Positions 1 through 16,811 of a stretch of 64,000 nt of DNA are shown piece by piece. A model generated the notes under the pieces. It saw only the letters and a program-made list of their open reading frames with translations. It was not told the origin of the DNA and did not search any database. A program made the position numbers and the translations under genes. Origin of the DNA: Candidatus Omnitrophota bacterium (GTDB taxonomy: Bacteria; Omnitrophota; Gorgyraeia; JAHIPI01); contig JAHIPI010000027.1 of assembly GCA_018894435.1 (NCBI GenBank), positions 1,552 through 65,551 of the forward strand, in the 5' to 3' direction. Positions within the stretch are counted from its first letter, which is position 1, and each line of letters opens with the position of its first letter.

Positions 1-3000
1 AGTCTCAGTTCCTGAAAGCTGCAATGAATTGTAAGTAGTGGTAGTAACATTGATGTTGCCTGCTGAGTTAGTAGCAGAGTATTTAACTGTAGAGGTGCCG
101 GGAGTTAAGGTGCCGCTAACAGTTAAGACTGTAGCAGTAGCGCCTGCATTGGCTAAGGTAAGCGTATAGCTTCCTGCTCCAAGATCTAAGATATCAGCCG
201 AACCAACTGTTCCATCGATCGTCAGCGTATCCACAGTCATTGAAGAAGCAAGAGTGAGTTTATTGTTAGTAGCCGGAGCTACAGTATCAGTCTTATTGAT
301 TGAGACTACGCCGATATTTTGTGGAGTGGCAGTTGAATCAGTATATGTAGCTGCGGTTGTGCCATCGAATGTCCAGGTGCCTGTGCCTTTGGTAACAGCT
401 CCTGCGGAAGCTATTGAGACATTGCCTGCGGTATTGACATTAGGATTATTGGTCAAAAGATTTAGGGTGCCATCAGTAATCGTCAGTGTCCCATTTACAT
501 CCAAAGCGCCTGATATAATCGCCTGGTCATAAGTCGCCTGGGTATTATTGAGCGTCAGGTTATAGAATGCCTGTCCGGCAGTAGTGATTGTCTGATGAGC
601 TGAAGCATTGCCGGTGAGAGTAACTGTGCTTGTGCCTGCAGTAAATGTTCCTGAGTTAGTCCAGTTGCCGCTTGCTGTAATAGGGGCGTATGAGCTTGTC
701 GCATCGAGGGTGCCATTTATTGTAATGTCTACGGCAGTAAGGCCATACTCTGTGCTAGTGGGTTTCACATCCAATGTGGCGTTAGAATTGATTGTTAAAT
801 TGCCTGTCATGGCATAGCTGCCTATAAGGTCGCCGGTCAGATTATATGTTGTAGCGCCTGTTGGAGTAAGTGTCAGGTTATTGTAAGCGACTCTTGCGAT
901 ATTAGTGGCTGTAGCAGTGCCGGTATAGATTACTGTAGAGCCTGTGCCTTTATTGAAGGTGCCTGTAGCTACAAGAGGAGTACCTGTGCCTGTGATGGTT
1001 AATATATATGAGGTTGTCCCAAGATTAAATGTTGTGCCGGTACCGATACTTAAAGAGGTTAGCTTTAAGTTACCTATCATCGTGGTAGTGCCTGTACCAC
1101 TAGTTACTACTACGCCTATGTCATTAGTAGTGGCGTTAGCATCTGATATATTCTGGGTAGCGCCGTCCAATGTGAGAGCCTGGCCGCCTGTGGCCTTGGT
1201 GAATGTGGAGCCATCCGCTATCGTGAAGTTACCTGATACATTAAGAGTCGAGGTGGCCTGAGTGAATGTGCCTGAATTAAGCGCGAAGGCTCCGTTAACG
1301 TCTACTGAGCCGGCCGCACCGCTTGTAAACGTCCCTCCCCCTATCGTTAACCCACCGTTAAAGGTCTGAAGGGCTGTTGAGGCCGAGTATGTGCCGCCGT
1401 TAATAGATGTAAGGCCTGTTACCGTGACGGTCATGGTGTTGGCATCGAAGATGCCAACTGAATTGATGAAGGCGCCTGTTACTGAAAGAGCATCCGCTAA
1501 CTGCAGCGTGCCGGCTCCGGAGTGAGTGAGGTTGTAGAAGGATGAATTCGTTGTACCGGAAGTTAACGTCTGGGTTCCGCTAGCTTTATTAAAAATAACC
1601 GTAGAATCATCGGCGATGAACTGTGACGGCGCTGTGCCTGTGCCGTAGTTAAGCCAGTTACCACCGACGGTGATGGTTGATGTGCGGCCAGCGCCAACGT
1701 TACGCGTGGCATCGAGTTTTCTTAAACCTGTCTCATCATTAAAACCAATTGTTAAATTTCCGCCAACCGTAAGGTTATAACCATCGGTTTTCCAGGTAAT
1801 TACGTTTCCAGCCGAATAAGCGGTTATAGATAAACTGTTTGTACCATTAAGCGTAACATTGCCTGTTTGAGTTATTGTTACGTTACCCCCTGTGACGATC
1901 CCACAATTATAGCCATTAGTTAGTGTGGGTATTGTAGCACTTGCAACAAAAGATAACATAGTAAGAGTAAGACTCGAGTTGACATCGAAACTGAGCGGAT
2001 TAGCCCCTTTGAGATATATCCATTTGCTACCTGTCAACGTACCGGAACCAATCGTCAATATCGACCCAATGGCAATATGGCTACCCAAAGTCGTCGTATT
2101 ACCGCTCTGTCCGGCGGTCAGGTTATTGAAGCCGTTAGCCGAATAACCTGATAAATTATTATACGTCAGCGTATTCACCCCATTCAGCACTAAGGTAGCA
2201 CTGTTGTATTGAGTAGATGCCACTGTCCCATCCGCTGTGAATGTGCCGTTGCCGTTAATGGTAATAGTTGATGAATTGGCGTTGAAGCGTGAGGTAATAG
2301 ATGACTGAACGAAGTTGCCGGCGAGCGTAATACCGTAAGAGTTGGCTAATGTAGTATCAAGTATCGCTCCTGCATCAATAGTCAGATTACCGGTTAAGGC
2401 ATTGCCAACTGTTAAGTTACCGGTCAAGTCATAAGTCTCAGTTCCCGAAAGTTGCAATGAATTGTAAGTAGTAGTGGTAACATTGATGTTGCCAGCTGAG
2501 TTAGTAGCAGAGTACTTGACTGTAGAGGTTCCGGGAGTTAAGGTACCACTTACTGTTAAGACTGTAGCAGTGGCGCCTGCATTGGCTAAGGTAAGTGTAT
2601 AGCCGCCAGCTCCTAAGTCCAGGGTATCAGCTGAACCGGCAGTGCCATCAATAGTTAAAGTATCTACTGTCATGGATGAGGCAAGAGTGAGCTTATTGTT
2701 TGTGGCTGGGGCTACTGTATCTGTCTTATTGATGGAGACTATTCCGATATTCTGAGGAGTAGCTGTTGAGTCTGTGTATGTAGCAACGGTGATGCCGTCA
2801 AAGGTAACTGCTCCGCCCTTGGTAAAGGTGGTGCCTAGATCCAGCTGGAAGTTGCCGGCATAGTTCTGGGTTTGACTGTTGGCATTAAATGTTCCTGACT
2901 GTAGCCTGAAGTTGCCATTCACATCCAAGGCATCTATTAATACCGCACTGCCAGCGGATTTATTGATGGTCAAGCCATAGAATGACTGACTATTCGATGT

Positions 3001-6000
3001 GATATTCTGGGTTCCTGTGCCGTTTAGAATAACCGTGGAGCTGCCGGGGGTGACGGTGGCGCGGGTAAAATCAACATTTCCGCCGATACTGACATTGCTC
3101 GTTGTGCCAAAATCGAAATAGCCGTAGGTATAACCGCTGCTGCCGTCCACATTAACATTGCCGGTAATGCTGTGCGTGCCGGTCTTAAACAGAATTTTTC
3201 CTCGATAGCCTTCCGGATAAGGAGCGTAACTTATTCCTAAATCCAGATTACCATTAACGGTTAGATTAAAGCCGTTTGTATCTAAAACTTGCGCTTCTGC
3301 TTCTGTATCAGCTAAGAAATCGCCGGCAATCCATAAAGTTCCGGTTGTCCAGTTGCCTGTCATTTGAATAGTCTTTGTATTAGCATACGCTATCTTGACC
3401 TGAACAGAAGTGCTAAATGCTTTTTGTGTTAAAGGGGTAGCGCTGGGTACAATGTCTATTCCACCGGTGGTTATACTCGAACCAGCGCCCATATCTAAAA
3501 AGTCATTCGCATTCGGATAAATAGCAATAGTACTCGCACCGGTCAAGACTGCGCTAGTTCCGAGAACAAGCTTCTTAGTGAAAACTCCGCCGGTTCTCGT
3601 GGAAGTAACACTGTTGCCAATTTGCAATACAGCAATAATATTGCCAGAATTTGGATTGGAGATATTCCCGTTTGCTCCCTGGATCCACGTACCTGTTGAT
3701 GTAAGGATACCCGAAGTATTGGCAATGCTGATATTGCCATTTACAGTTACGGTTTGGCCGCCATCGATCAGTGTGCCATCGGTAACAGTAATACCTGTGC
3801 ACGTTAACGCATCCACCAGCGTCCATCCGCCCGCGGCATTGCTTGAGTCAAATACGACAGTATTAAAAGTAGAGCCGCCGGTCGTAATAGTTTTTCCTAC
3901 TGCGCTAGCGGTAAAGGTAACTGTTTCGCTGGCGCCTTTGGTATATACACCTCTTGTCCCAGAATCCCAATTGCCGCCGACATTAATCGGCGTATTATTG
4001 ACTGAATTATTCAGGGTAATGGTTACGGCGCCGACCGTTGTATGGGTTATGGTAAGATTACCACCCACAGTAAGAGTGCCAATGCCTAAAACACCTGTAG
4101 CGGAGCCGGCATTGCTATTCGTTATGGTTAAATTGCCGCCGTAGGTTGTGGGGGTTATGGGCGCGGTTGTAGCGCCTTGTCCAATCAGATATTCAAATAA
4201 GCTCACAGAAATCGTGCCATTGTTGACAATGTTAGATGAGGCATTGCTAACATCTTTAGAAAACCTGCCCGCGCCGCTTAAGGTGCTTGCATTATTGATG
4301 GTTAAGGTGCCAGTCTGACCTACGTATAATCTCTTACCTGTCCCGATTTCCAGTTCTCCTGTAATATTCAGGGCATAAGAGGGATAGGCGGAAGTGCCTG
4401 TATTCCAGCTCACTTTGTTAATTCCGGAATTTATGGTTAATTTGTAGAATTTAACGTCCCAGTAACTCCCGCTTGTAGGAGTAGTAATGGTTTTGTTTCC
4501 CCCTGTGGCTGTCATAATTACTTCGCTTGTGCCATAAGTAAACGTCCCTGCCGAAGAATCCCAGTTGCCGCCGACATTAATTAGCGTGGCGCCGCTGCAG
4601 GTAAGCGTAACACCGGAGTTAATCGTGAGATTGCCTGAAACGCCGATAGTATAGACACCCACAGTATAGGTAGCGGCAGTGGTGGTCTTAGCTAATGTCA
4701 AAGCGCCGGCTGAAGTAACTGCCTGAAGCGTTGATGATACGCCTTCGCTGGTTAAGGTAATGTCACCGCTGGTAACTGTAGAAATCGTCCCTGAAGACTG
4801 GATGAGCGCTCCTGCGCCGGTATTAATCTGCAGCGCTCCGCTAGTGACTGTGAGGTTCCCGGCAATGGTGAGCGTATTGCCATTACTATTAATATATGCG
4901 CCGCCGGAGCCTGCAACTACGCCAGTGAGCGCTGTAGAAGGAGCAATATATAAATTCGCTACGTCTGTGCCTAATCCGCCAGTCGCGCCGCCGGCTGTCA
5001 ATTTAAGATTTGCTGCCTTGATAATATTGGAAGCGCCGCCGGAATGGGTGATGTTTCCTGCTGCTGCCGCTAGCGTTAGGTCGCCAAGAGTTTTATAAAG
5101 TAGGTTGTCGCCGGTATTTTCCAAAACTCCGCCATAAGTAGCTGTGTTGGAAACAATGGCTAATTCTTCAGTCGTGCCGGATTCAACCGCGGTCTTAATA
5201 TCCAAATTGCCCGAGGCTTTAGAAATGTGCGAAGCGCCAAGGGGCGTATTAGTTTCTACATAGACGCCTGTTGCAATTGGGATTGGCGTAGAGGCAGTGC
5301 CGACACTACCGGAGGTAGATTTTAGGACTATCGCGTCAGCGCTAAAGCTGGCTGAATTTGAAGTTATATTATTTGTTGCTGTAACATAGATAAAGTTGGC
5401 TCCGGAAAATGCGGAAATAGACCCCAGCGAAATATCATAACCCTTGATTGTTATATTGGAAGCCGTTGTGGTTGAAATTGTTCCGGAAGTATGGGTGAAA
5501 TTTCCTGAGCCATTGGCATCGTAATCAGCTTGGATAGCTATAGAGCTGCCGGTTGAGCTAACATTTGCCTGGATATCAATATCGCCATTGGAATAGAGAA
5601 AAATATTCCCTGATCTGGAGAACGCGCCTGTAACTGTTAATTCTACCGGCGCGCCGGCAGTATCGCCAGTAGCATAAATAGTAGTGGTAGCTCCTCCGGA
5701 TAAGCTGGCATTCTGGGTGGAGCCGCCGGTAGTAATAGTATTACCATTAATGATAAAGGTATTGGCGCCTTGCAGGGTTAGAGGGTTTCCCGTGCCGGCA
5801 GTTAAAGTCACTAAGCCTGCAGCGGTAAAAGTGAGGTTGCCTGAGCCATTGGCATTATAATCAGCTTGGATATAAAGGTAACTTTCGGTTGAGCCAACAT
5901 TAGCCTGGATATCAATATCACCTTTGGAAAAGAGATAAACTACCCCTGATTTGGAAATCGCGCCTGTAACTGTCAACTCTACCGGTGCGCCGGCAGTATC

Positions 6001-9000
6001 ACCAGTAGCATAAATGTTAAGGCTATTTCCTCCGGATAAGCTGGCATTCTGGGTTGAGCCAGCAGTAGTAATAGTATTGCCATTAACGCTAAAGGTATTG
6101 GCGCCTTGCAGATAATGAATGTTTGACGCGCCGGCAGTTAAAGTCACTGTAGCTGCAGCAGTAAAAGTGAGATTGCCTGAGCCATTGGCATCATAATCAG
6201 CTTGGATATAAAGGTAATTCCCTGTTGAGCCAACATCAGCCTGTATATCAATATCACCTCTGGACCAAAGAGTAACTATGCCGCTCTTAGAGATCGCTCC
6301 TGTGACTGTCAGCTCTACTGGCGCGCCGGCAGTATCGCCAGTAGTATAGATTTGTAAGCTATTTCCTCCGGATAAGCTGGCATTCTGGGTTGAGCCAGCA
6401 GTAGTAATAGTATTGCCATTGATGCTAAAGGTATTGGCGCCTTGCAGATAATGAGTGCTTGACGCGCCGGCGGTTAAAGTCACTGTAGCTGCGGCAGTAA
6501 AAGTGAGGTTGCCTGAGCCATTGGCATCTATATCAGCTTGGACATAAAGTGAGCTTCCCGTTGAGCTAACATTTGCTTGTATATCAATATCTCCTTTGGA
6601 ATAGAGATAAACTGTCCCTGATTTGGAGACCGCTCCTGTAACTGTCAGCTCTACTGGCGCGCCAACAGTATCGCCAGTGGCATAAATAGTAAGGCTATTT
6701 CCTCCGGATAAGCTGGCATTCTGGGTGGAGCCGCCGGTAGTAATAGTATTGCCATTAACGCTAAAGGTATTGGCGCCTTGCAGATAATGAAGGCTTGATG
6801 CGCCGGCAGTTAAAGTCACTGTAGCTGCGGCAGTAAAAGTGAGGTTGCCTGAGCCATTGGCATCATAATCAGCTTGGATATACAGGGTATCTCCCGTTGA
6901 GCCAACATCAGCCTGTATATCTATATCGCCATAGGCTCGAAGATTAACCGCGCCAGTCTTAGAGATCGCTCCTGTAACTGTTAATTCTACTGGCGCGCCG
7001 GCGGTATCGCCAGTAGCAGTAATGGTAAGGCCGCCACTTCCTCCGGATAAGCTGGCATTCTGGGTGGAGCCAGCAGTAGTAATAGTATTGCCATTAACGC
7101 TAAAGGTATTCGCGCCTTGCAGGACATGAGCGCTCGATGCTTCGGCAGTTAAAGTCACTATGCCGACAGCAGTAAAAGTGAGATTGCCTGAGCCGTTGGC
7201 ATCATAGTCAGCGTAGATACCTACAGAGCTGCCGGTTGCGCTAACATCAGCCTGTATATCAATATCACCTTTGGAAAAGAGATAAACTGCCCCCGATTTG
7301 GAAATTGTGCCTGTAACTGTCAACTCTATTGGTGCGCCGGCAGTATCGCCAGTAGCATAAATGTTAAGGCTATTTCCTCCGGATAAGCTGGCATTCTGGG
7401 TGGAGCCACCGGTAGTAATAGTATTACCATTAACGCTAAAGGTATTGGCGCCCCACAGTTTATGAACGCTTGATGCGCCGGCAGTTAAAGTCACTAAACC
7501 TGCAGCAGTAAAAGTGAGGTTGCCTGAGCCATTGAGATCGTAATCAGCTTGGATATAAAGGTAATTCCCTGTTGAGCCAACATCAGCCTTTATATCAATA
7601 TTTCCATTTGCCCATAATCTTATAAGGCCGGCGCAGGAAATCGTATCATTGACTGTAATGTCCCCGACTATAGCCGAAATAATTGATTTGTAAACACTTA
7701 ATGAGCCTGCAGAAGTAATCGCATCTAACGTGGCATTTGCCGCGTAGATGATGATGTTTGCTGTGCCGGTAGTGGTAATTTGTGTGGCAGAGCCCTGGAT
7801 AAACGAACCATTGCCATCACGGTCAGAATCCGCGTTAAAAGTAATCGTGCCGGAGGCGGAAACCGAGGCATTGACATATATATCATTAGTAGCGGTGAAG
7901 GTCAGCGCGCCGGCATAGGCAGTAATCGGAGAATCAATCCAGATATTTACCGGGTCAAAATCAAGGTGGCTGGCAGAATAGGTGCCGCCAATGTCAAGGC
8001 TGTCAGCCTTAAAGATAATCGTGCCGTAGTCAGGGTTGGCAGCCATAATTCCGCGGGCGTAAATTGTCCCATTTAATGCTTTTAATACTATATCGCCGGT
8101 GGGCGTAGATAAAGTGCCGTTTAAGAATAAATTTTGGGTGGTTGAGATGAGGGTGAGGTTGTTGCTGGAAATAGTTACACCCCTAGCGACATAGATAGAC
8201 CCATCTTGCGCTTCGAGGATAAGATTTGTGCTCTTTAAGTATTGAATTGCGAAATCGTCGCCGGGAGGACCCCTGACGGTTACGCCTTCGCCCATGATAG
8301 AAGATAAAGCTATTACTATATCTTCATTGGTTCTCACCACCTTGAGCGTGCCGGCTGCGGTTATTACGGGTTCCTCGCTATGACCGATATTGTTGCCTAT
8401 AAGGGTGAGTGTTGAGGCAGGTATTATGGCCTGTCCTGAATCTGTCACTCCACCATTTTGGGCCTCCAGGGTAAGAGACTTAAGCGAACAATAGGTCACT
8501 GCTCCGAAACCTTCAACCGGTCCGACAATCGTAACCTGGTCTCCTTCTAACTCTATAACTGCTACTATGTCAATGTCACTTATATTCCTATATATATGGG
8601 TGACATTCGCGTTCACTATGAAAGGCTCTTCAATACTGCCTATTTGAATTCCTATCAGCTTAACCATATCACCGGGAACTGCTGTATCCGATATGTTAGT
8701 AACTTTCCCGTTTGGCGCTTCCAGCGTAATACTGCCGGCAGTCGCATACCTTAATATATCACCGTGCTCTGTGGTCATGGTGGTTATGCCGGCATCTGAG
8801 GTTACTGTGTTAATCTCTATGTCGCCTGCTGTATGGATGTAATGGGGCAGGCCCGCTATCTGAATCGGTGCAACACGGCTTCCTATTAATATATGGCCCT
8901 CGGCCGCCTCCATATCGTACAGGGTAAGAAGAGGAGCATCGACCATCAGGTCGCCTTCAAGAACGGCCAGCTTTGTCCCTTCGATCTGCCTCACCTCGCC

Positions 9001-10305
9001 GCCGAACGCGGTAATATCGAGGTCGCCCGATGAAGAGACGTTAGCCACTGTCACGCTTCCGGTTCCGGAATAGGCAGTGGTGCCTGACCTTATGGTTATA
9101 TCCCCACCTCCCTGAGTAGATATGGCAGCATCGGCGAGTTGGGTGAAATCGCCTCCGTTTAGGTTATCATCATCTGCTATGAATACAAGGTCTGCCCCGT
9201 TTAATCCATATACATTGCCTGTAATATTGATATTGGCAGGCGTCGCTACGGTGAGGGACGCGGTTGCTTCCATTGTGCCTGCTAATGTAGTATCTAACAA
9301 TGAGCTATATGAGATGTTCGCGCCCGTAACTTCGGCGCTTGCCAGTTGTACTATTTCGCCTTTCGTCGCCTCTATAGTGATATCACCTGAGGCGTACATG
9401 GTACCGCTATTTTCTATATCGCCCTCAGGCGCCAGGAGCGCAATGGTTCCGTCCGCATTCTCCACGATCTTAGCGGCCAGTATCATGCCTTCGTTGTTAA
9501 CGGCATTAGCAAAGGCGTCTCTGGCAGCTGAGGCAGCAATAATGACTTTGCCTGAATCGGCCTGGATTGTCCCTGTATTTATTATGGCAGCTTCCTCATT
9601 GGTGGGGTTAGAGGTAACAGGTTCATCTATAGCCACCTGTATGAGGCGGTTATTTTCGAAACTGATGGTAACCTTGTTCCCGCTTGCCAGTGCCACCGTT
9701 CCCTGATCGGCCTGCAGCATCCCTTCATTTTTGATAGTCTGGGCTAAAAGGGCAATGAAGCCGCCATCGTTCACAGCTATTACTGCCTGGTTTACAATCT
9801 GGCCATCTTTGTTCAGTTTCTGGAAAACATATCTGCCGTTTCTGAAATCTTCTGTATCAATGTTCATTGTTGATGCAACAAGCGATCCAACATTGATGTT
9901 TGCGCTGGGGTCAAATACTATGCCGTTCGGGTTGACTATAAAGATATTGCCATTGGCATAAAGATAGCCAGCAATTACTGATTGCTGGCCGCCTATGACA
10001 TTGTTAAGGACGTTTGAGTTTGCTGATGTCTGATAATAATAGACGCTCTCGTTTGCTGTGATATTTAAAGACTGCCAATTTAAAACTGCATTATCTGAGG
10101 GCCTTACGGTTACACTATTGGGGATCGAATAATCGATTTCGGCTGTGCCTTCAACTACCTGGCATCCTTCAGGAAGTGCGTGTACTGTGTTTACGCTAAA
10201 TAATAAAAAAAGAGCAATCAAACCCGCAGCCCACATTATGCCGCTTGTGGCGCGTGTCTTTCTTGCCCTTATAATCTCGTTTTTACTGTGGCTTAACGTT
10301 CTCAT
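1..10305 (-). CDS. Giant TpsA / filamentous-haemagglutinin-like secreted repeat exoprotein; N-terminal signal peptide plus TPS (haemagglutination activity) domain; 3' end lies beyond the window start (at least 3435 codons in window)
   Basis: Reverse-complement translation from ATG at 10305 gives MRTLSHSKNEIIRARKTRATSGIMWAAGLIALFLLFSVNTVHA... then ...GNIFIVNPNGIVFDPSANINVGSLVAST (NPNGI hallmark of the TPS domain). No complete minus-strand ORF is listed for 1..10305, consistent with one open frame with no in-frame stop before the window edge. The plus-strand V/P-rich ORFs are antisense shadows. Confidence 0.8.
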   Translation of the reverse strand, partial: MRTLSHSKNEIIRARKTRATSGIMWAAGLIALFLLFSVNTVHALPEGCQVVEGTAEIDYSIPNSVTVRPSDNAVLNWQSLNITANESVYYYQTSANSNVLNNVIGGQQSVIAGYLYANGNIFIVNPNGIVFDPSANINVGSLVASTMNIDTEDFRNGRYVFQKLNKDGQIVNQAVIAVNDGGFIALLAQTIKNEGMLQADQGTVALASGNKVTISFENNRLIQVAIDEPVTSNPTNEEAAIINTGTIQADSGKVIIAASAARDAFANAVNNEGMILAAKIVENADGTIALLAPEGDIENSGTMYASGDITIEATKGEIVQLASAEVTGANISYSSLLDTTLAGTMEATASLTVATPANINITGNVYGLNGADLVFIADDDNLNGGDFTQLADAAISTQGGGDITIRSGTTAYSGTGSVTVANVSSSGDLDITAFGGEVRQIEGTKLAVLEGDLMVDAPLLTLYDMEAAEGHILIGSRVAPIQIAGLPHYIHTAGDIEINTVTSDAGITTMTTEHGDILRYATAGSITLEAPNGKVTNISDTAVPGDMVKLIGIQIGSIEEPFIVNANVTHIYRNISDIDIVAVIELEGDQVTIVGPVEGFGAVTYCSLKSLTLEAQNGGVTDSGQAIIPASTLTLIGNNIGHSEEPVITAAGTLKVVRTNEDIVIALSSIMGEGVTVRGPPGDDFAIQYLKSTNLILEAQDGSIYVARGVTISSNNLTLISTTQNLFLNGTLSTPTGDIVLKALNGTIYARGIMAANPDYGTIIFKADSLDIGGTYSASHLDFDPVNIWIDSPITAYAGALTFTATNDIYVNASVSASGTITFNADSDRDGNGSFIQGSATQITTTGTANIIIYAANATLDAITSAGSLSVYKSIISAIVGDITVNDTISCAGLIRLWANGNIDIKADVGSTGNYLYIQADYDLNGSGNLTFTAAGLVTLTAGASSVHKLWGANTFSVNGNTITTGGSTQNASLSGGNSLNIYATGDTAGAPIELTVTGTISKSGAVYLFSKGDIDIQADVSATGSSVGIYADYDANGSGNLTFTAVGIVTLTAEASSAHVLQGANTFSVNGNTITTAGSTQNASLSGGSGGLTITATGDTAGAPVELTVTGAISKTGAVNLRAYGDIDIQADVGSTGDTLYIQADYDANGSGNLTFTAAATVTLTAGASSLHYLQGANTFSVNGNTITTGGSTQNASLSGGNSLTIYATGDTVGAPVELTVTGAVSKSGTVYLYSKGDIDIQANVSSTGSSLYVQADIDANGSGNLTFTAAATVTLTAGASSTHYLQGANTFSINGNTITTAGSTQNASLSGGNSLQIYTTGDTAGAPVELTVTGAISKSGIVTLWSRGDIDIQADVGSTGNYLYIQADYDANGSGNLTFTAAATVTLTAGASNIHYLQGANTFSVNGNTITTAGSTQNASLSGGNSLNIYATGDTAGAPVELTVTGAISKSGVVYLFSKGDIDIQANVGSTESYLYIQADYNANGSGNLTFTAAGLVTLTAGTGNPLTLQGANTFIINGNTITTGGSTQNASLSGGATTTIYATGDTAGAPVELTVTGAFSRSGNIFLYSNGDIDIQANVSSTGSSIAIQADYDANGSGNFTHTSGTISTTTASNITIKGYDISLGSISAFSGANFIYVTATNNITSNSASFSADAIVLKSTSGSVGTASTPIPIATGVYVETNTPLGASHISKASGNLDIKTAVESGTTEELAIVSNTATYGGVLENTGDNLLYKTLGDLTLAAAAGNITHSGGASNIIKAANLKLTAGGATGGLGTDVANLYIAPSTALTGVVAGSGGAYINSNGNTLTIAGNLTVTSGALQINTGAGALIQSSGTISTVTSGDITLTSEGVSSTLQAVTSAGALTLAKTTTAATYTVGVYTIGVSGNLTINSGVTLTCSGATLINVGGNWDSSAGTFTYGTSEVIMTATGGNKTITTPTSGSYWDVKFYKLTINSGINKVSWNTGTSAYPSYALNITGELEIGTGKRLYVGQTGTLTINNASTLSGAGRFSKDVSNASSNIVNNGTISVSLFEYLIGQGATTAPITPTTYGGNLTITNSNAGSATGVLGIGTLTVGGNLTITHTTVGAVTITLNNSVNNTPINVGGNWDSGTRGVYTKGASETVTFTASAVGKTITTGGSTFNTVVFDSSNAAGGWTLVDALTCTGITVTDGTLIDGGQTVTVNGNISIANTSGILTSTGTWIQGANGNISNPNSGNIIAVLQIGNSVTSTRTGGVFTKKLVLGTSAVLTGASTIAIYPNANDFLDMGAGSSITTGGIDIVPSATPLTQKAFSTSVQVKIAYANTKTIQMTGNWTTGTLWIAGDFLADTEAEAQVLDTNGFNLTVNGNLDLGISYAPYPEGYRGKILFKTGTHSITGNVNVDGSSGYTYGYFDFGTTSNVSIGGNVDFTRATVTPGSSTVILNGTGTQNITSNSQSFYGLTINKSAGSAVLIDALDVNGNFRLQSGTFNANSQTQNYAGNFQLDLGTTFTKGGAVTFDGITVATYTDSTATPQNIGIVSINKTDTVAPATNNKLTLASSMTVDTLTIDGTAGSADTLDLGAGGYTLTLANAGATATVLTVSGTLTPGTSTVKYSATNSAGNINVTTTTYNSLQLSGTETYDLTGNLTVGNALTGNLTIDAGAILDTTLANSYGITLAGNFVQSSITSRFNANSSTITINGNGTFTADGTVASTQYNSATLVLNGVNTLTYNNLSGYSANGFNNLTAGQSGNTTTLGSHIAIGSILTIGSGTLTGSKWIYLKGANPLSFDVNSSLTLTMLSFVASATIPTLTNGYNCGIVTGGNVTITQTGNVTLNGTNSLSITAYSAGNVITWKTDGYNLTVGGNLTIGFNDETGLRKLDATRNVGAGRTSTITVGGNWLNYGTGTAPSQFIADDSTVIFNKASGTQTLTSGTTNSSFYNLTHSGAGTLQLADALSVTGAFINSVGIFDANTMTVTVTGLTSINGGTYSASTALQTFNGGLTIGGGTFTSGAAGSVDVNGAFALNSGTFTQATSTLNVSGNFTIADGSTFTKATGGQALTLDGATQNISDANATTNDIGVVVTSGTGTTTMIGNLKLTSLSIGTGTTFNLGTTSYILTITGTGTPLVATGTFNKGTGSTVIYTGTATATNIARVAYNNLTLTPTGATTYNLTGDLIGSYAMTGNLTINSNATLDVKPTSTEYGLTAVDITINGTLDATSSYAPITASGNWTNSGTFTAGTSTVTLTGNASAHQTITTAGQAFYNLTLNNTQATYDQAIISGALDVNGTLTITDGTLNLLTNNPNVNTAGNVSIASAGAVTKGTGTWTFDGTTAATYTDSTATPQNIGVVSINKTDTVAPATNNKLTLASSMTVDTLTIDGTVGSADILDLGAGSYTLTLANAGATATVLTVSGTLTPGTSTVKYSATNSAGNINVTTTTYNSLQLSGTET
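2440..2820 (-). repeat. Long-range intragenic duplication: 2440..2820 is about 88% identical to 1..380 (2.44-kb period), with weaker similarity continuing beyond
   Basis: Direct comparison of agtctcagttcctgaaagctgcaatgaattgtaagtag... at position 1 with agtctcagttcccgaaagttgcaatgaattgtaagtag... at position 2440. Confidence 0.75.
5505..7524 (-). repeat. Tandem array of 336-bp (112-aa) near-identical repeats inside the tpsA-like gene, about 6 full copies plus degenerate copies on both sides (roughly 5170..7860)
   Basis: The motif cctgagccattggcat recurs at 5505, 5841, 6177, 6513, 6849, 7188 and 7524; the period is 336 bp (one step of 339). A repeat translates on the minus strand as DANGSGNLTFTAAATVTLTAGASSTHYLQGANTFSINGNTITTAGSTQNASLSGGNSLQIYTTGDTAGAPVELTVTG... 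Confidence 0.8.
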
Positions 10306-10471
10306 TGCAAATCCTATTTTCGGCAACTGACAGCCATGACCAGAATGGCTTTAGGCTCTTAGTTTTGCGTCGCCAGCTTTTGCTGGTTTTGCCTTTTCGC
10401 TATAGAATTTAAAGAGAACCCGAATTACTTTGAGTGGTTTGGTTCGTCTTTACCCTTTTAGCCCTACTAAG

Positions 10472-10603: not shown

Positions 10604-10942
10604 TTATTTTTTCAGCCACTTTGTAATCTTAGGGTTCCGGCTCAGTTTGTCTATCTTCTTGTAAACTGTTACCGCCTCCTCATATCTTTTCTCAGCCAAA
10701 AGCGACTCTGCCTCATCATAAAGCGGCTTTATCTCAGAAAGTATACCTTGAAGTTTGTCTTGCGCTTGCTCCTCCCAAATCTTTTGCTCGATCTCCTTTA
10801 TGCGTACCTTCGCTTTCCTCGCCAGCTCATCTATGTTGTATCTGTAGAATTCGGCACGGGAGGTACTAGTAAATAGCAGAACAACTAATATGGTCATTGC
10901 GAGCGCCGCGAAGCGGCGCGTGGCAATCTCAAAGTTTTTCAT
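10604..10942 (-). CDS. Small secreted/periplasmic helical protein with a TPR-like segment
   Basis: 112 aa. N-terminal signal peptide (MKNFEIATRRFAALAMTILVVLLFTSTSRA). The motif LYDEAESLLAEKRYEEAVTVYKKI resembles the C-terminal repeats of the adjacent TpsB. Confidence 0.5.
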   Translation of the reverse strand: MKNFEIATRRFAALAMTILVVLLFTSTSRAEFYRYNIDELARKAKVRIKEIEQKIWEEQAQDKLQGILSEIKPLYDEAESLLAEKRYEEAVTVYKKIDKLSRNPKITKWLKK

Positions 10943-11219
10943 ATAGATCCGTAAATTTAGGATTCAAGCTGTTTATCAAATCTATCTTCTTCTTTCTAGA
11001 ACCAGCTTTAATCTGTTTTTCTCTTGCGATAGCCGTTTCAATATCGTCAAATACTTCATAATATACCAGCTTGTCAACATTGTATTTCTTGGTAAATCCC
11101 TCTACCATCTTATGCTTGTGTTCATACGCTCTCTTACGTAAATCGCTTGTAACGCCTGTGTAAATAACCGCATCCCCTTTGTTAGTCATTAAATAGACGT
11201 AGCCTTGCTTTTCATGCAT
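10929..11219 (-). CDS. GIY-YIG nuclease family protein (UPF0213-like, 96 aa)
   Basis: GYVYLMTNKGDAVIYTGVTSDLRKRAYEH matches the GIY-(x10)-YTG...R...EH core of GIY-YIG; the size is typical of the family. Confidence 0.8.
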   Translation of the reverse strand: MHEKQGYVYLMTNKGDAVIYTGVTSDLRKRAYEHKHKMVEGFTKKYNVDKLVYYEVFDDIETAIAREKQIKAGSRKKKIDLINSLNPKFTDLYEKL

Positions 11220-11280: not shown

Positions 11281-13482
11281 TTATCTCGCGAGCTCCAATG
11301 CCCTTTGATACGCTTCCCCGGCCTTTTCGAGGTCGCCTTCTTTATCGTACTTTTCTGCCTCTTCAAAGGCCTTGACCGCCGCCTCTTCTTCCGAATTTCC
11401 CGTGTGGCTCCAAGCCAGTTCAAGTACCTTCACATACGCCTCTTTTGCCTTTTTCCAATCTCCTTCTTTCTGGTATTTCACTGCCTGCTCAAACGTCATC
11501 TGCGCTTCTTCCTCTTTCTGGATAGTATCTTTTATCTCCACCTGAGTGCCGGTAATGACCTGGTCACGCAGCTCAACGACCTTGGCATACAGTTCCTTTG
11601 CCTCTTCGTAGCGGCCTTCCTGCTCCAGCGCCTGAGCCGTCTCAAACGAGTCTTTCATCTCCACTGACGGTGTTTCGTGCTTTACCTTCGTCAGTCTGTC
11701 TTCTATCCTCGTATACATCATCTCTTGTAAAAGCTGTTCATACTCGGCGAGTGACGGCTCCTCAAAGCTGAAATACATGTGCGCCTTGGGGCTTCTGCCG
11801 TAAGACGAGGCATCGCCGACAGGCCAGGCAACGTCATACCGAGCGGAGAGGCAATTCATAATATTTGCCCTTCCGCCAAAACCTACGCCTATGAAATTAT
11901 GGTTATGCCTTGGCGTCGGGCTGGGCTCTCGGTAGTGCGCAAAGCCCCAGTCGGCAAATATCGTGCCCTGCAGGACGCGCCTCGGATGTATACCCTCAAT
12001 GTGAAAACTGTCCGGAATAAAATAAAACGGATAACGTAATTCTATGCTCGCATTGTTGCCGTAATCGCCCAATGCGTCGCCTTCGCCGTAGCCCCTCACC
12101 GTATACATGCCGCCAATTCTATACTGCTCGGAACTTACAAGCGGATTATTTGACGCCTGTCCCGCCGCGCTCAAAAGAAGGTACGTTGAAAGAGGCATGG
12201 CGTTCATGCGAGAAATGGAGTAGGTATATTTAACAAATTTCCCGCCGCCTTTTTCTCTGGAGGAGTGTATGTCGTTCTCGTCCATAGAGTCCAGGAAATT
12301 AGGGAATGAAACGTTCAGCTCGTTTCTGAGCTGCGTCCTCCCGACGGCATCGCTCTCGTCAAGCGTAAAGGCGCCTTTCATAATCCGCAGTTTGTCGCGC
12401 GAATCCAAAACACCGCCTATGGTGGTCTTTGCCTCTTTTATGTCCATGCCACCGTCAATGGTGCCACCCAATGTGCCGGATTTGTAAGTAAGGTTAAAAA
12501 CGGGGTGCGACATAAAGGGCGATACCGTTCCCGACCAGCTTTTTATACCGTAATCCTGAAAATCACCGCCTATTCTCGATTTAAAGTAAGACGCGGAAAT
12601 CCCCAGCTTTGTACCGGATTCGTTAACGGGTATCGTGTAGTCTGCTATCCAGCCATAAAAATTGAATGTATCGGATCTCATGAAACGGCCGAAGAAGCGG
12701 TCGTCCCAGCCGAGGAGCGAGTTGTCTTCCAGTCCAAGGGTAAGACGCCAATTACCTGTCGTATTATTGCCGGTGTTATCAAAACTCAAAAAAGGATGCA
12801 CCGGCGGCCTGTCCTTTACTTTTATCATTACGTCGCTCGTGTCCGGAAGCGAGCCGCGGTAAAGTACGGCCCGCACAATTCTATCGGGGCTCTGGTTTAG
12901 ATACAAGAGGTCGTCTCTTAAGTCATTGTAATCTAAGATGTCGCCCCTATTGTTATTAATGCGTCTCTTTATTACGGACTCGTTTGAATTCTGAACGCCC
13001 TCTATATTGATATTGCCGTATTTGCCTTCAAGGACTTTTATGGTAACGGTATTGTCTGCGATCGTCTGCGGCGGGACATATGCCTGCGAGGTTATATAAC
13101 CTTCCGATGTGTAAAGAGCGCTTATCTTATTGGCCGCCTCTATAAGGTCGTTCAGTGACAATTCCCTGTTTTCGTAAGGTTGCGTGATCTCTTTAATACG
13201 CTTCTCGGGAAATACGGTATTGCCTTCTACGTTTATGTGCTCAATTAGGAATTTCTTTGTGGATTCGGCCTCGGGGACTGCTATTTTCTTTTCTTCGTCT
13301 TCTATGTTTACTTTTGGCTGGGGTTTGAAACCTTGGAAAGGTTTTTGCTTCAAGATAGCGCTGCCCTCTTTGCCCGCTGTAGGTATGGGTGGTTGAGCGC
13401 GCAACAAAGAAGCCGTGAAGATACAGACGGCTAAAAGTGCAAAAAATATGATTTTTCGTAACTCTTTTTCTTTATTAGGCAT
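11281..13482 (-). CDS. TpsB / ShlB-FhaC family outer-membrane transporter (POTRA domains plus beta-barrel) with a non-canonical C-terminal extension of about 155 aa containing three TPR-like repeats; the listed ORF extends to 13542 but the likely start is the Met at 13482
   Basis: POTRA-like FLIEHINVEGNTVFPEKRIKEITQ...VTIKVLEGKYGNINIEG. Barrel region ending ...KAHMYFSF. Then FETAQALEQEGRYEEAKELYAKVVEL / FEQAVKYQKEGDWKKAKEAYVKVLEL / FEEAEKYDKEGDLEKAGEAYQRALEL. Signal peptide MPNKEKELRKIIFFALLAVCIFTASLLRAQ follows the second Met. Confidence 0.8.
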   Translation of the reverse strand: MPNKEKELRKIIFFALLAVCIFTASLLRAQPPIPTAGKEGSAILKQKPFQGFKPQPKVNIEDEEKKIAVPEAESTKKFLIEHINVEGNTVFPEKRIKEITQPYENRELSLNDLIEAANKISALYTSEGYITSQAYVPPQTIADNTVTIKVLEGKYGNINIEGVQNSNESVIKRRINNNRGDILDYNDLRDDLLYLNQSPDRIVRAVLYRGSLPDTSDVMIKVKDRPPVHPFLSFDNTGNNTTGNWRLTLGLEDNSLLGWDDRFFGRFMRSDTFNFYGWIADYTIPVNESGTKLGISASYFKSRIGGDFQDYGIKSWSGTVSPFMSHPVFNLTYKSGTLGGTIDGGMDIKEAKTTIGGVLDSRDKLRIMKGAFTLDESDAVGRTQLRNELNVSFPNFLDSMDENDIHSSREKGGGKFVKYTYSISRMNAMPLSTYLLLSAAGQASNNPLVSSEQYRIGGMYTVRGYGEGDALGDYGNNASIELRYPFYFIPDSFHIEGIHPRRVLQGTIFADWGFAHYREPSPTPRHNHNFIGVGFGGRANIMNCLSARYDVAWPVGDASSYGRSPKAHMYFSFEEPSLAEYEQLLQEMMYTRIEDRLTKVKHETPSVEMKDSFETAQALEQEGRYEEAKELYAKVVELRDQVITGTQVEIKDTIQKEEEAQMTFEQAVKYQKEGDWKKAKEAYVKVLELAWSHTGNSEEEAAVKAFEEAEKYDKEGDLEKAGEAYQRALELAR

Positions 13483-13630: not shown

Positions 13631-14152
13631 TTAGACGTACCTTTTCATCAATTCTTGCCACTTTCCCTGGGCCTTCAGGATAATCTCTATGACTTCGCGC
13701 ACTGCGCCGCGTCCGCCCCCTTTTGAGGTTACATAATGGGCGGCTTCAAGGACTTCCGGTACGGCATTGGATACCGCTACGGCAAGACCGACTTTTCTCA
13801 AAACCGGCAGGTCCACAAGATCATCGCCGATGAAACAGACCTCTTCGGGAATGACTTTAAAATCGGACAATATCTCCCCGTATGCATCCGCCTTGCGTAC
13901 GGCATTCTGGTAGGATTTGTCTATATTGAGGGTTTTTGCTCTTTTTGCCACAATCTGTGACTTTTTGGCGGTAAGTATAGCGGTTTTAAGGCCGGCCCTT
14001 TTAAATAGCGACAGCCCCATGCCGTCAGTCACGTCAAAAAATTTGAGTTCATCTCCTGAATTTGTGTATATTATGCGGCCGTCTGTCAGGACGCCATCCA
14101 CGTCCATTACAAGTAGTTTGATCTTTTTAGCTTTTTCGTTTATCATCGTCAT
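13631..14152 (-). CDS. kdsC: 3-deoxy-D-manno-octulosonate 8-phosphate phosphatase (HAD-IIIA)
   Basis: LLVMDVDGVLTDGRIIY ... FIGDDLVDLPVLRKVGLAVAVSNA; 173 aa; lies in a kds operon. Confidence 0.85.
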   Translation of the reverse strand: MTMINEKAKKIKLLVMDVDGVLTDGRIIYTNSGDELKFFDVTDGMGLSLFKRAGLKTAILTAKKSQIVAKRAKTLNIDKSYQNAVRKADAYGEILSDFKVIPEEVCFIGDDLVDLPVLRKVGLAVAVSNAVPEVLEAAHYVTSKGGGRGAVREVIEIILKAQGKWQELMKRYV

Positions 14153-14154
14153 TT

Positions 14155-14182
14155 GGGGTCAGACCCTCGTTATGTAAACTAC
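14155..14182 (+). repeat. REP unit (family A) GGGGTCAGACCCTCGTTATGTAAACTAC; single arm
   Basis: Fills the kdsD-kdsC junction; its CTA supplies the TAG stop of kdsD. Confidence 0.8.
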
Positions 14183-15138
14183 ACCAGCCCCGCTTTCAGT
14201 AGATCCTGCACGTCCAGAAGCCCTGCGGGCCGGCCCTTGCGGTCAACCACCGGCATTTCGTCTATCTTTTTGGACTGTAATATCCGAAGGGCGTCAATTG
14301 CCATGGCCTCTTCCCCGATAGTTATAGGGTTCTTTGTCATTACCTCTTTTACGCGCTTACGCGTAATATCGCCTTTCGCCCTCACCTGGCGCCTCAGGTC
14401 GCCGTCGGTAAATATGCCTCGCAATACGCCGCTTTTATCAACAATGCTCGCTGAACCTGCGCGGGCGCGCGTTATCTTCAATAAAATTTCTCTCACCAGC
14501 TCGTCTTCACGCGCCACGGGATTAGCATCGCCCTTTCGCATTATGTCTTTCACCCTCAAAAGAAGCCGCTTGCCTAAATTGCCGCCGGGATGGTAGAGCG
14601 CAAAATGTTCTATTTTGAAACCTTTTTTCGCCTGCACCGCCACAGATAGCGCATCGCCCATCGCGAGCATAACGGTCGTGCTCGTAGTAGGAGCAAGCCC
14701 GAACGGGCACGCCTCTTTATTTATGCCGACATTCAGGACGCAGTCCGCGTTTCTCGCGAGCGTGGAAGACACATTGCCAACCATCGCAATAAGCGTGGCT
14801 CCTATCCGCTTTACAATCGGCAGTAAACTTATTATCTCCTCTGTCTCGCCGCTATTGGATATAGCTATAAGGCAGTCGTTCTTTGTAACTCTGCCAAGGT
14901 CGCCGTGCAGCGCCTCCGCGGGATGCAAATAAATGCTCGGCGTCCCCGTTGATGAGAAAGTCGCGGATATCTTCTGCGCTATAAATCCGGGTTTTCCCAT
15001 GCCGGTTACTATTACGTGGCCCTTTGTCTTCAGGACGATTTTTACCGCCTTCACAAAATTTGAATCTATCCTTTTTATGAGGTCTTGTATGGCTTTTGCT
15101 TCTATTTTCAGCACTTCTTTGGCTTTTTTTATCGACAT
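14179..15138 (-). CDS. kdsD: Arabinose-5-phosphate isomerase (SIS plus tandem CBS domains)
   Basis: GHVIVTGMGKPGFIAQKISATFSSTGTPSIYLHPAEALHGDLG; the C-terminal half has CBS-domain character. Confidence 0.85.
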   Translation of the reverse strand: MSIKKAKEVLKIEAKAIQDLIKRIDSNFVKAVKIVLKTKGHVIVTGMGKPGFIAQKISATFSSTGTPSIYLHPAEALHGDLGRVTKNDCLIAISNSGETEEIISLLPIVKRIGATLIAMVGNVSSTLARNADCVLNVGINKEACPFGLAPTTSTTVMLAMGDALSVAVQAKKGFKIEHFALYHPGGNLGKRLLLRVKDIMRKGDANPVAREDELVREILLKITRARAGSASIVDKSGVLRGIFTDGDLRRQVRAKGDITRKRVKEVMTKNPITIGEEAMAIDALRILQSKKIDEMPVVDRKGRPAGLLDVQDLLKAGLV

Positions 15139-15151
15139 AACCCCTCTTTAT

Positions 15152-15206
15152 GGGGTCAGACCCTCGTTATGTTAACTACGTAGTTTACATAATCAGGGTC
15201 TGACCC
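15152..15206. repeat. REPIN: inverted doublet of family-A REP units forming a palindrome of about 55 bp
   Basis: ggggtcagaccctcgttatgttaactac|gtagtttacataatcagggtctgaccc. Encodes the last codons (IRVRP) and the stop of kdsA. Confidence 0.85.
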
Positions 15207-16017
15207 TAATGACCTTCTCTATTTTTTTCATTTTTTCAAGTATCGCCGGCAATTCCGCCAAAGGCAGCATATTCGGGCCGTCGCATGGAGCCTTGTCCGG
15301 CGCTTCGTGTACCTCTACAAATATGCCGTCTACGCCAACCGAGATAGCCGCATAAATAAGCGGCTCTATAAAACGCCTCTCCCCGCCGCTTGCCGCCCCA
15401 AGTGAGCCCGGCAGCTGTACCGAATGGCTCGCATCATAAATAACCGGTACCCCGAACCCCCGCATTATCAAAATGGAGCGAAAATCACTCACAAGATTAT
15501 TGTATCCGAATATCGTGCCGCGTTCTGTGATTATTACTTTATTATTACCCGCGGAGGCGGCCTTTTCTATAGAGTGCTTCATGTCCCACGGAGAAAGGAA
15601 CTGCCCCTTCTTTATATTCACTATTCTTTTCGTCTTTGCCGCCGCTATTATAAGGCTGGTCTGCCTTGAAAGAAGCGCCGGTATCTGCAAAATATCGAGG
15701 ACCTCGCCCGCTCTTTTCGCCTCTTCTTCCGTATGCACGTCGCTCAGGATAAATACGCCGAGCGAGTCCTTCACCTTCTTCAGTATCTTAAGGCCTTTAT
15801 CTATGCCCGGCCCCCTGTAAGATTTAACTGATGTCCTGTTTGCCTTGTCATAACTCGATTTAAATATAAAAGGCACCTTCGCTTTATCGGTAATCTTCTT
15901 GAGCCGTTCAGCGTGGCGCATCGTGCTTTTTTCGTCTTCTATGACACACGGCCCGGCTATTAAAACAGCGGGATTGTTGCCGCCTATTTTTATTTTGCCC
16001 AAAGTAACTACGTTCAT
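15193..16017 (-). CDS. kdsA: 2-dehydro-3-deoxyphosphooctonate aldolase (KDO-8-P synthase)
   Basis: LIAGPCVIEDE...FKSSYDKANRTSVKSYRGPG. Confidence 0.9.
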   Translation of the reverse strand: MNVVTLGKIKIGGNNPAVLIAGPCVIEDEKSTMRHAERLKKITDKAKVPFIFKSSYDKANRTSVKSYRGPGIDKGLKILKKVKDSLGVFILSDVHTEEEAKRAGEVLDILQIPALLSRQTSLIIAAAKTKRIVNIKKGQFLSPWDMKHSIEKAASAGNNKVIITERGTIFGYNNLVSDFRSILIMRGFGVPVIYDASHSVQLPGSLGAASGGERRFIEPLIYAAISVGVDGIFVEVHEAPDKAPCDGPNMLPLAELPAILEKMKKIEKVIRVRP

Positions 16018-16739: not shown

Positions 16740-16759
16740 TTAGAGCTCCTTGACTGGTC

Positions 16760-16811
16760 GCGGGACACGTTCCTTAAGAATCGCTAATTTAATCGCCGGA
16801 ACATGTCCCGC
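16760..16811. other. 14-bp-stem hairpin (gcgggacacgttcc ... ggaacatgtcccgc) between the hldE-like gene and kdsB; contains the GTCCCGC core shared with family C
   Basis: Inverted repeat with one mismatch and a 24-nt loop. Confidence 0.4.

Follow-up and report, generated by a model that had tools for sequence, protein, structure and literature searches.

Six diverged 112-residue tandem units as a probable structural extension module in a giant two-partner secretion exoprotein of a Candidatus Omnitrophota bacterium

The window, a stretch of 64,000 nucleotides from contig JAHIPI010000027.1 of a Candidatus Omnitrophota bacterium, carries on its minus strand a tandem array that is probably a structural extension module in the passenger of a giant type Vb exoprotein. 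An earlier note on this DNA had marked the array as a likely hotspot for copy-number variation. The present analysis serves mainly to correct this view: the array exists, but its copies are neither near-identical nor recent, it poses no hazard to assembly, and the hotspot label is therefore unwarranted. Six diverged in-frame copies are an ordinary route to longer adhesin-like fibres.

On the evidence of its sequence, the gene is a tpsA of two-partner secretion (type Vb) with its tpsB beside it (Table 1). The minus-strand frame is continuous across the repeats, being open over window positions 1-10350 (3450 codons), and the translation opens MRTLSHSK. There are 3435 N-terminal codons inside the window; the gene reaches past the window start and the contig end and encodes at least 4208 aa. 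Two partial deposited proteins, MCG2704615.1 of 4208 aa and MBU4487832.1 of 3952 aa, match the TpsA sequence of the window exactly, and in both deposited assemblies the gene is cut off by the end of its contig. The TpsA-like identity proposed in the earlier note is borne out by the Pfam TPS domain, PF05860 (aa 59-299, E 3e-32, 112.9 bits with a cut-off of 33.5), and by TIGR01901 (70 bits, cut-off 29.1), and the repeats are in frame; the TPS domain and adhes_NPXG matches far exceed their cut-offs. An NPNG motif was read off the translation within this domain. A candidate Sec signal peptide, picked out by eye, has the hydrophobic stretch IMWAAGLIALFLLFSVNTVHA/LPEG. Encoded on the same strand, TpsB matches POTRA_2 (87.7 bits), ShlB (86.3 bits) and TPR_2 in Pfam. 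In the public record, tpsB is a 733-aa gene with another start codon.

Tandem repeats with a period of 336 nt are present where they had been reported. TRF placed the array at 5504-7601, with 6.2 copies, 83% matches and a score of 2706, and a repeat search gave unit spacings of 336, 336, 336, 336 and 339, the last figure being due to one additional codon in unit 2 (u2). The boundaries proposed earlier have the same register moved by 18 nt and include the single 339-nt unit, and the peptide quoted with them matches unit 4 exactly. Seven copies had been counted, where six full units (u1 to u6) were found. The range given, 5169-7860, does hold the array, but it spans eight periods, with a degenerate leading unit as the outermost period at one end and, at the other, a C-terminal cap that is not a repeat. 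The degenerate leading unit has 31-40% amino acid identity to the units and scores 29-53 bits, against 103-210 for full units; about 27 final residues are unit-like and the remainder has diverged. Among the full units, u6 is the most diverged. The copies had been called near-identical, at 85-95%; in fact their DNA identity is 77-90%, averaging about 83%, and their protein identity 71-89%.

Table 1. Features of the tpsA repeat module and the neighbouring tpsB gene, in window coordinates
Feature	Position	Strand	Remarks
tpsA exoprotein gene	1..10305	-	open frame over 1-10350, ATG at 10305
TPS secretion domain, aa 59-299, with NPNG motif (IVNPNGIVF)	9409..10131	-	PF05860 and TIGR01901
Module lead-in (N-cap), conserved, aa ~760-826, GTIIFKADSLDIGGTYSASHLDFDPVNIWI...TFTATNDIYVNA	7828..8028	-	precedes array also in P0002, P0003, P0004, P0006, P0017
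Degenerate leading unit, aa 827-921	7543..7827	-	unit HMM 29 bits, family HMM 53 bits
Unit 1 (u1), 112 aa	7207..7542	-	unit profile 203 bits
Unit 2 (u2), 113 aa	6868..7206	-	unit profile 191 bits
Unit 3 (u3), 112 aa	6532..6867	-	unit profile 208 bits
Unit 4 (u4), 112 aa	6196..6531	-	unit profile 205 bits
Unit 5 (u5), 112 aa	5860..6195	-	unit profile 211 bits
Unit 6 (u6), 112 aa	5524..5859	-	unit profile 190 bits
Module C-terminal cap, conserved, aa 1595-1720, YDANGSGNFTHTSGTISTT...ISLGSISA...VTATNNITSNSASFSA...GTASTPIPI	5146..5523	-	aligns with post-array segment of P0002, P0003, P0004, P0006
Cognate TpsB outer-membrane transporter gene, C-terminal TPR extension	11281..13482	-	Pfam POTRA_2, ShlB, TPR_2; upstream of tpsA

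An exhaustive HMMER search of 1.84 billion representatives identified 8 true clusters, one of them that of the window protein itself. In the seven others, the same lead-in and the same cap enclose 3-7 units of 95-121 aa. These define a small repeat family that is described by no curated library, and its named members are all Omnitrophota. Three further candidates from this search (P0008, P0010 and P0011) were rejected as low-complexity or LRR-type chance matches to short parts of the profile only. A single-sequence query found 4 relatives. Word-indexed protein searches with the unit alignments A1 and A2 found nothing, which is a limit of the sensitivity of that method, and there was no match in pattern scans with A1 (genome contigs and metagenome contigs) or with an exact 27-mer (metagenome contigs). 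The array had no meaningful match in NCBIfam, and the repeat unit had none in Pfam, NCBIfam or PDB sequences.

Comparison of the unit sequences indicates that the units are maintained by purifying selection and are old copies, not a locus that is unstable at present. The dS between units is 0.23-0.53, which speaks against the recent expansion suggested earlier, and the mean dN/dS is 0.39. A PHI-type permutation test for gene conversion or recombination across the six units was not significant (p = 0.13), and because of this a high four-gamete incompatibility count was not accepted as proof of recombination. Amino acid identity between units is 64-80% within a protein and 33-50% between homologous proteins, with one homologue at 50% within. 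Since the likeness within a protein exceeds that between homologues, some homogenisation or lineage-specific amplification took place. To this extent the earlier note is supported. The units are partly homogenised within the lineage, or were amplified lineage by lineage.

The units are 336 or 339 nt, both multiples of 3, and a change in copy number therefore cannot shift the frame; the phase variation once proposed, as ON/OFF switching, is impossible. The idea of a variation hotspot also runs against the sequences at hand. The protein from the second deposited MAG shows no difference along 3952 aa, and near-identical variants of two homologues retain the array length: P0003 and P0016 differ by 1 residue, as do P0002 and P0014, with equal lengths in each pair, and the P0003 gene is identical across 5 contigs from 3 samples. 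Copy-number polymorphism was found neither between the two deposited proteins nor inside the two homologue clusters, which make up a tiny sample of assembled sequences. It is very unlikely that the array is a contingency locus, in which unequal recombination or slippage would often alter copy number and with it fibre length or antigenic variation within populations. Such a locus would be in keeping with the greater similarity of units within proteins than between homologues, with the spread of 3 to 7 copies among homologues (the complete homologous arrays have 6, 6, 6, 7, about 5 and 3 units), and with the exact tracts of 27-63 nt common to units, which could seed RecA-dependent exchange. There is one genuine copy-number difference in the family, between P0013 and P0002, but it is in RCC1 repeats. 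Added to the constant lengths, the preserved frame, the dS values and the PHI result, the units differ by 10-23% in DNA, and three lineages have precisely six strong units and one degenerate one, all of which counts against frequent change.

The longest exact tract common to any two units is 63 nt. Each unit is therefore unique at read or k-mer scale, and the assembly-collapse risk raised earlier falls away. That the array or its copy number arose by short-read mis-assembly, through collapse or spurious expansion, is scarcely credible. The source is a short-read-style MAG contig, and in both deposited assemblies the contig ends inside the gene, but every unit is unique with an identity of at most 90%, the frame is open throughout, an identical protein comes from the second deposited assembly, and the same architecture recurs in homologues from other samples. 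The artefact was rejected on these grounds.

The fold was predicted from a shallow alignment, with the internal repeats used as pseudo-homologues. The model of two units plus the cap is an uninterrupted run of short strands, which resembles beta-helices rather than beta-sandwiches. Whether the unit is a beta-helix or Ig-like had been left to fold prediction; it is modelled as a beta-helix, and Ig-like (BIg-type) tandem domains were rejected, the model being continuous and not a set of separate beta-sandwiches. In the model the cap prolongs the beta-helix, with a pLDDT of about 80-95 up to about model residue 330. Single-sequence AlphaFold of u3-u5 was of no use, with a pLDDT of 41, and a Foldseek search of the PDB gave no significant match. 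The array is predicted to be a right-handed parallel beta-helix. Each unit probably forms 4-5 coils, about 2-2.4 nm, and the six together would add roughly 12-14 nm of rigid shaft.

In the proposed course of secretion, the N-terminal signal peptide would take TpsA across the inner membrane, the TPS domain would be recognised by the TpsB encoded upstream, and the passenger would fold extracellularly into a right-handed parallel beta-helix. Between the lead-in with its degenerate unit and the cap, each of the six 112/113-residue units would add several coils, and the six would lengthen the rigid shaft and present the same surface six times. In keeping with a module, its distance from the TPS domain differs between proteins, and the TpsA of the nearest relative, with only the first ~740 aa in common, lacks it. 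A D-x-D-x-N-G-x-G-N-L turn at the junctions, a putative calcium loop, may stabilise the stack. The array may serve as a spacer, as a multivalent adhesive surface by which other cells are contacted, or as both. If it is by these fibres that host or prey cells are attached, then the module sets fibre length.

EtpA of enterotoxigenic E. coli (PDB 8vba, 8vbb, 8cpk) is also a TpsA secreted via a TpsB and has a long right-handed beta-helix. Tandem long repeat modules form much of this helix, giving it a repeated surface, and act jointly in glycan binding (PMC11463764). However, EtpA has 4 C-terminal modules of about 228 aa each (glycan sites at 849, 1077 and 1305, spaced 228 residues), whereas the TpsA of the window has 6 x 112-aa units placed centrally in more than 4200 aa of protein, and comes from an uncultured environmental Omnitrophota bacterium. 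EtpA was absent from the matches of the unit profile to all PDB sequences, the best of which was an unrelated amidase (E 0.63), and the likeness of EtpA-type repeats to the modelled array is structural only, no sequence similarity having been detected. No EtpC/HMW1C-type glycosyltransferase was seen adjoining the genes.

It is possible, though doubtful, that the array binds ligands multivalently, with one site per unit, which might recognise a glycan of host or prey cells, and with avidity across all six as in EtpA, a role that would be compatible with shaft extension. The four C-terminal repeat modules of EtpA are jointly required for blood-group A glycan binding (PMC11463764), and published work portrays Omnitrophota as nanobacteria that depend on a host or are predatory, and that bear giant surface proteins (10.1101/2023.11.21.568195; 10.64898/2026.06.07.730766). 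Furthermore, all six units agree at 65 of their 112 positions, with variation limited to a few patches, but the core of a beta-helix may by itself explain such conservation. No ligand, pocket or lectin-family similarity turned up, and Pfam, NCBIfam and the PDB sequences gave no match.

The prototypes of TpsA beta-helix adhesins, the filamentous haemagglutinin of Bordetella (FhaB/FHA) and the HMW1 protein of Haemophilus, share the TPS domain with NPNG, the POTRA-bearing TpsB partner and a beta-helical shaft made of internal repeats. The repeats of the FHA shaft are short, roughly one coil each. The block described here is instead a multi-coil 112-aa unit with its own conserved caps. In addition, the TPS domain was the sole Pfam match of the 3435 aa of TpsA (E <= 0.01), and the haemagglutinin repeat families Fil_haemagg and Fil_haemagg_2 were not matched.

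This phylum also has very long secreted or surface proteins that as a rule contain repeated domains (10.64898/2026.06.07.730766; 10.1101/2023.11.21.568195), although the TpsA array differs in that its repeat has no Pfam family. In a survey of Omnitrophota repeats, the copies had gathered synonymous and tolerated non-synonymous changes and were not recent expansions (10.64898/2026.06.07.730766), as the dS values of the array likewise indicate. It appears that Omnitrophota carry large two-partner secretion fibres on which the searched papers on their giant proteins are silent: a text search of 10.64898/2026.06.07.730766 and 10.1101/2023.11.21.568195 found two-partner secretion, TpsA and hemagglutinin-type proteins unmentioned for Omnitrophota, and a literature search for Omnitrophota with 'filamentous hemagglutinin' found nothing.

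The turn at each unit junction resembles the Dx[DN]xDG calcium loop, a motif class that binds Ca2+ in many folds (PMC3123361). In the window protein every junction reads D-Y-D-A-N-G, with N at position 5, while the canonical D-x-D-x-D-G is found in many units of the homologues. Nearly all members of the family have one D-x-[DN]-x-[DN]-G-x-G-x-[LF] per junction and almost none elsewhere in the proteins, and in the model the motif is a non-strand turn between strands. These features would suit a calcium-dependent folding module, itself compatible with shaft extension, in which the turn would bind extracellular Ca2+, drive or lock folding outside the cell as in RTX-type beta-rolls, and aid secretion of the long passenger. 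This is unlikely, however: the likeness is one of motif only, position 5 is N in the window protein, and the hydrophobic residue lies at +10 rather than at +8 as in EF-hand loops. The array shares with the RTX beta-roll an Asp/Asn/Gly-rich turn regularly repeated in a secreted beta-solenoid (PMC3123361), but its motif recurs every 112 aa instead of in each 9-residue repeat, and secretion is type Vb and not type I.

A wider reading, which is quite unlikely, is that the module is a discrete cassette for extension, portable and confined to the TpsA fibres of Omnitrophota, made up of a cap, units of about 105 aa and a second cap, locked by Ca2+ at the junctions and shuffled between otherwise unrelated passengers, where it would tune the reach of the fibre for seizing other cells. 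If true, fibre reach would be tuned in ultra-small host-dependent or predatory bacteria.

The repeats lie in a single minus-strand frame that stays open over 3450 codons, from 10350 to the first base of the window, and continues past the window edge; translation probably starts at the ATG at 10305. The identity of the product as a TpsA, a giant two-partner-secretion (type Vb) exoprotein, and the continuity of the frame across the repeats are borne out. Residues 59-299 form a TPS secretion domain (PF05860, 112.9 bits against a Pfam cut-off of 33.5); the protein also matches the NCBIfam model adhes_NPXG and has an NPNG motif in its translation, and the gene for its outer-membrane transporter TpsB is upstream. 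No other Pfam or NCBIfam family matched in the 3435 residues of TpsA, and the unit profile had no meaningful match among PDB sequences.

Features of the repeat gene and its neighbourhood
Feature	Window position	Strand	Basis
u1	7207-7542	-	NGSGN[LF]T cut
u2	6868-7206	-	NGSGN[LF]T cut
u3	6532-6867	-	NGSGN[LF]T cut
u4	6196-6531	-	NGSGN[LF]T cut
u5	5860-6195	-	NGSGN[LF]T cut
u6	5524-5859	-	NGSGN[LF]T cut
Dispersed ~140-aa repeat, in-window copies	1-300; 2434-2733	-	
Junction-like motif in TpsA stalk (aa ~360-380)	~9165-9225	-	
tpsB-tpsA spacer: 112-aa ORF without family	10604-10942	-	
tpsB-tpsA spacer: 96-aa ORF, GIY-YIG nuclease domain	10929-11219	-	PF01541, public annotation
tpsB (POTRA_2, ShlB, C-terminal TPR extension)	11281-13482	-	Pfam
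TpsB TPR extension (aa ~630-753; TPR_2, TPR_1, TPR_8)	~11281-11650	-	Pfam
LPS-core-type cluster: KdsC-like HAD hydrolase, KdsD-like SIS+CBS isomerase	within ~13631-25710	-	Pfam, public annotation
LPS-core-type cluster: DAHP_synth_1 (KdsA-like), CTP_transf_3 (KdsB-like)	within ~13631-25710	-	Pfam, public annotation
LPS-core-type cluster: three Glyco_transf_9 heptosyltransferase-like genes	within ~13631-25710	-	Pfam, public annotation
LPS-core-type cluster: two 720-aa fused glycosyltransferases	within ~13631-25710	-	Pfam, public annotation
Small 23S_rRNA_IVP family ORF	19950-20315		Pfam, public annotation

With Tandem Repeats Finder, a single large array appears at 5504-7601 (period 336, 6.2 copies, 83% matches, score 2706), and a repeat search of the window places six copies in register at spacings of 336, 336, 336, 336 and 339 nt. 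Cuts at each recurrence of NGSGN[LF]T in the protein delimit six full units, u1 to u6, of 112, 113, 112, 112, 112 and 112 residues, with pairwise identities of 77-90% in DNA (mean ~83%) and 71-89% in protein. The unit profile scores 190-210 bits on each of these, against 29 bits for the period before u1 and 2 bits for that after u6. The range 5169-7860 (8 periods), in which the earlier note saw seven near-identical copies at 85-95%, therefore holds six real units, with a degenerate unit leading them and a cap outside the repeat behind them. The array is real, but its copy number and identity had been overstated. The boundaries drawn there keep the same register, offset by 18 nt, and the peptide quoted is unit 4.

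A recent expansion had been proposed for the array, which is not supported by the dS values of 0.23-0.53 between units (mean 0.37, Nei-Gojobori). The dN is 0.05-0.21 and dN/dS is 0.17-0.64 (mean 0.39); judged from sequence comparison, the copies are old and each under purifying selection. A 2026 survey (10.64898/2026.06.07.730766) reports internal repeats as the rule in long Omnitrophota proteins and ascribes the differences among copies to synonymous changes and tolerated non-synonymous ones, without recent expansion; this array shows a like pattern. The longest exact tract common to two units is 27-63 nt, depending on the pair. Each unit is therefore unique at short-read or large k-mer scale, which argues against the suggested assembly risk; collapse of the array is unlikely. 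Homologous exchange could still occasionally start from such tracts. The closest-matching unit shifts along a unit's length, and 414 of 741 informative site pairs among u1-u6 fail the four-gamete test. The PHI-type permutation test did not reach significance (p = 0.13), so that these data do not establish recombination among u1-u6.

Phase variation does not fit an array whose unit lengths are multiples of three, such that a change in copy number alters length and never switches frame. Nor is a copy-number hotspot supported, since array length is constant among the few near-identical variants compared: the homologues P0003 and P0016 are one residue apart and equal in length, as are P0002 and P0014. 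Five contigs from three samples carry the P0003 gene in identical form. A further homologue, P0013, is otherwise near-identical to P0002 and has one extra 57-aa RCC1 blade (3143 vs 3086 aa). The six-unit beta-helix arrays of these two are the same, and the family's copy-number difference is real but lies in the RCC1 repeat.

The six-unit array is reproduced in two deposited assemblies, possibly resting on shared reads. Locus L001 (contig JAKLQY010000009.1, GCA_022013075.1, a Candidatus Omnitrophota MAG) is identical to window 4179-25138, and its partial 4208-aa 'filamentous hemagglutinin N-terminal domain-containing protein' (MCG2704615.1) is the TpsA of the window. MBU4487832.1 (partial, 3952 aa, on a 66,273-nt contig) is identical to it over its full length. 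The distal TpsA also holds a second, dispersed repeat, a ~140-aa segment (FDGTTAATYTDSTATPQNIG...KYSATNSAGNINV...YNSLQLSG) in four copies at aa 2502, 3313, 3587 and 3853 (P0012 numbering of this protein). The two copies within the window have 85% DNA identity and are 2433 nt apart; the MBU4487832.1 contig ends inside the fourth.

An exhaustive HMMER search of 1.84 billion representatives with the unit profile (E <= 0.001) returned 11 proteins: the window's own, seven true relatives (P0002-P0007 and P0009) and three chance matches. The last (P0008, P0010 and P0011) were rejected as low-complexity or LRR matches. P0017 and P0018, the latter named Omnitrophota, were added by single-sequence search. 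In the complete-array relatives except P0009, a conserved lead-in (GTIIFKA..LDLGGTY.AS.IDFDP.NIWI...TFTATNDIYVNA) precedes a single degenerate unit and the successive units, after which comes a likewise conserved cap (DGTGNF[TI]HT.GTISTT...VSLGTISANSG...VTATGNITSNSA.FTA). Strong units number six in the window protein (112-113 aa), P0002 (105-106 aa) and P0003 (111-121 aa), seven in P0006 (102-104 aa) and four, with a truncated fifth, in P0004 (105 aa). P0009 has three (95-101 aa), then a segment different from the cap.

The distance of the module from the TPS domain varies (~aa 335 in P0003, ~aa 760 in the window's TpsA), and the module behaves as a cassette. The units group by protein, with mean amino acid identity of 64-80% within proteins (50% in P0003) and 33-50% between them. 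This higher identity within proteins supports some homogenisation, as had been supposed, and the grouping indicates that the units evolved in concert or were amplified separately from lineage to lineage. The repeat family is new, lacking a curated model, rare (eight clusters) and with named members confined to Omnitrophota; with caps and a junction motif of its own, its novelty is modest.

Among species-representative genomes, the nearest to carry the TpsB (86% identity) is another Candidatus Omnitrophota MAG (locus L004). The 2230-aa TpsA encoded there (L004:5711-12400) matches the window's TpsA only over the first ~740 residues, at 65% identity, and the homology stops just short of the module in the window's protein. 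The unit profile finds the repeat absent altogether from the L004 protein. Beyond ~740 aa its passenger is unrelated. In this lineage it seems common for the passenger to be swapped while the TPS and stalk region upstream of it is conserved.

Single-sequence AlphaFold2 prediction of three units gave no usable model (pLDDT 41). With A3, an alignment whose 19 rows are unit pairs and caps taken from the window protein and relatives, the u5-u6-cap model reached a mean pLDDT of 83.3 and pTM of 0.84. The pLDDT exceeds 90 over most of residues 1-330 and falls at the TGDTAGAP loop, a segment that several relatives have lost by deletion. The predicted structure is all-beta, each unit having ~13 short strands. 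Foldseek found no significant match to the model in the PDB, and nearly all the non-significant ones were beta-solenoids. Compared with known structures, it scored 18.1 against the HMW1 secretion domain (2odl), 15.8 against the EtpA secretion domain (8cpk), 14.7 and 14.5 against HxuA (4i84, 4rt6), 13.5 against FHA (1rwr) and 13.4 against full-length EtpA (8vba). Because of this resemblance, the unit is predicted to be a stretch of right-handed beta-helix. The choice between a beta-helix and an Ig-like domain, raised in the earlier note, was addressed by this modelling; the Ig-like reading is rejected on the strength of the beta-helix model and its matches to TpsA-type beta-helices. From the strand count we infer 4-5 coils per unit, or ~2-2.4 nm at 0.48 nm per coil.

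TpsA adhesins such as FHA, HMW1 and EtpA are well known to build their beta-helix from tandem repeats. On the best-supported reading, the array is a module that lengthens the shaft of a two-partner-secretion fibre. TpsB would export the TpsA protein, the passenger would fold into a beta-helix outside the cell, and the six units would add ~12-14 nm of rigid shaft, with one surface repeated six times. That surface may bind a ligand multivalently, a refinement compatible with shaft extension; in EtpA, glycan binding requires all four C-terminal repeat modules together (PMC11463764). Text searches of two studies of Omnitrophota giant proteins (10.64898/2026.06.07.730766, 10.1101/2023.11.21.568195) turned up neither two-partner secretion nor TpsA, and a literature search joining Omnitrophota with 'filamentous hemagglutinin' gave no result.

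Nearly every family member carries the motif D-x-[DN]-x-[DN]-G-x-G-x-[LF] once at each unit junction, and the rest of these proteins is almost free of it. In the model, the D-x-D-x-N-G-x-G-N segment is a non-strand turn from the last strand of one unit to the first of the next. Also compatible with shaft extension, the junction may be a putative calcium site of the Dx[DN]xDG class (PMC3123361), locking the stack outside the cell. An extra junction-like motif, AD-x-D-x-[DN]G-x-G-x-F-TQ, is in the TpsA stalk well upstream of the module. It reads IADDDNLNGGDFTQ in the window's protein and is found at the same place in several family members (P0002 and P0017).

FhaC/ShlB-type transporters normally end with the barrel, and a periplasmic TPR tail on one would be unusual. 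The extension is kept in the L004 TpsB, whose 86% identity spans the full length, and the L004 spacer also holds a GIY-YIG ORF at the same place. The large ORFs of the window are all on the minus strand, including the LPS-core-type gene cluster upstream of tpsB.
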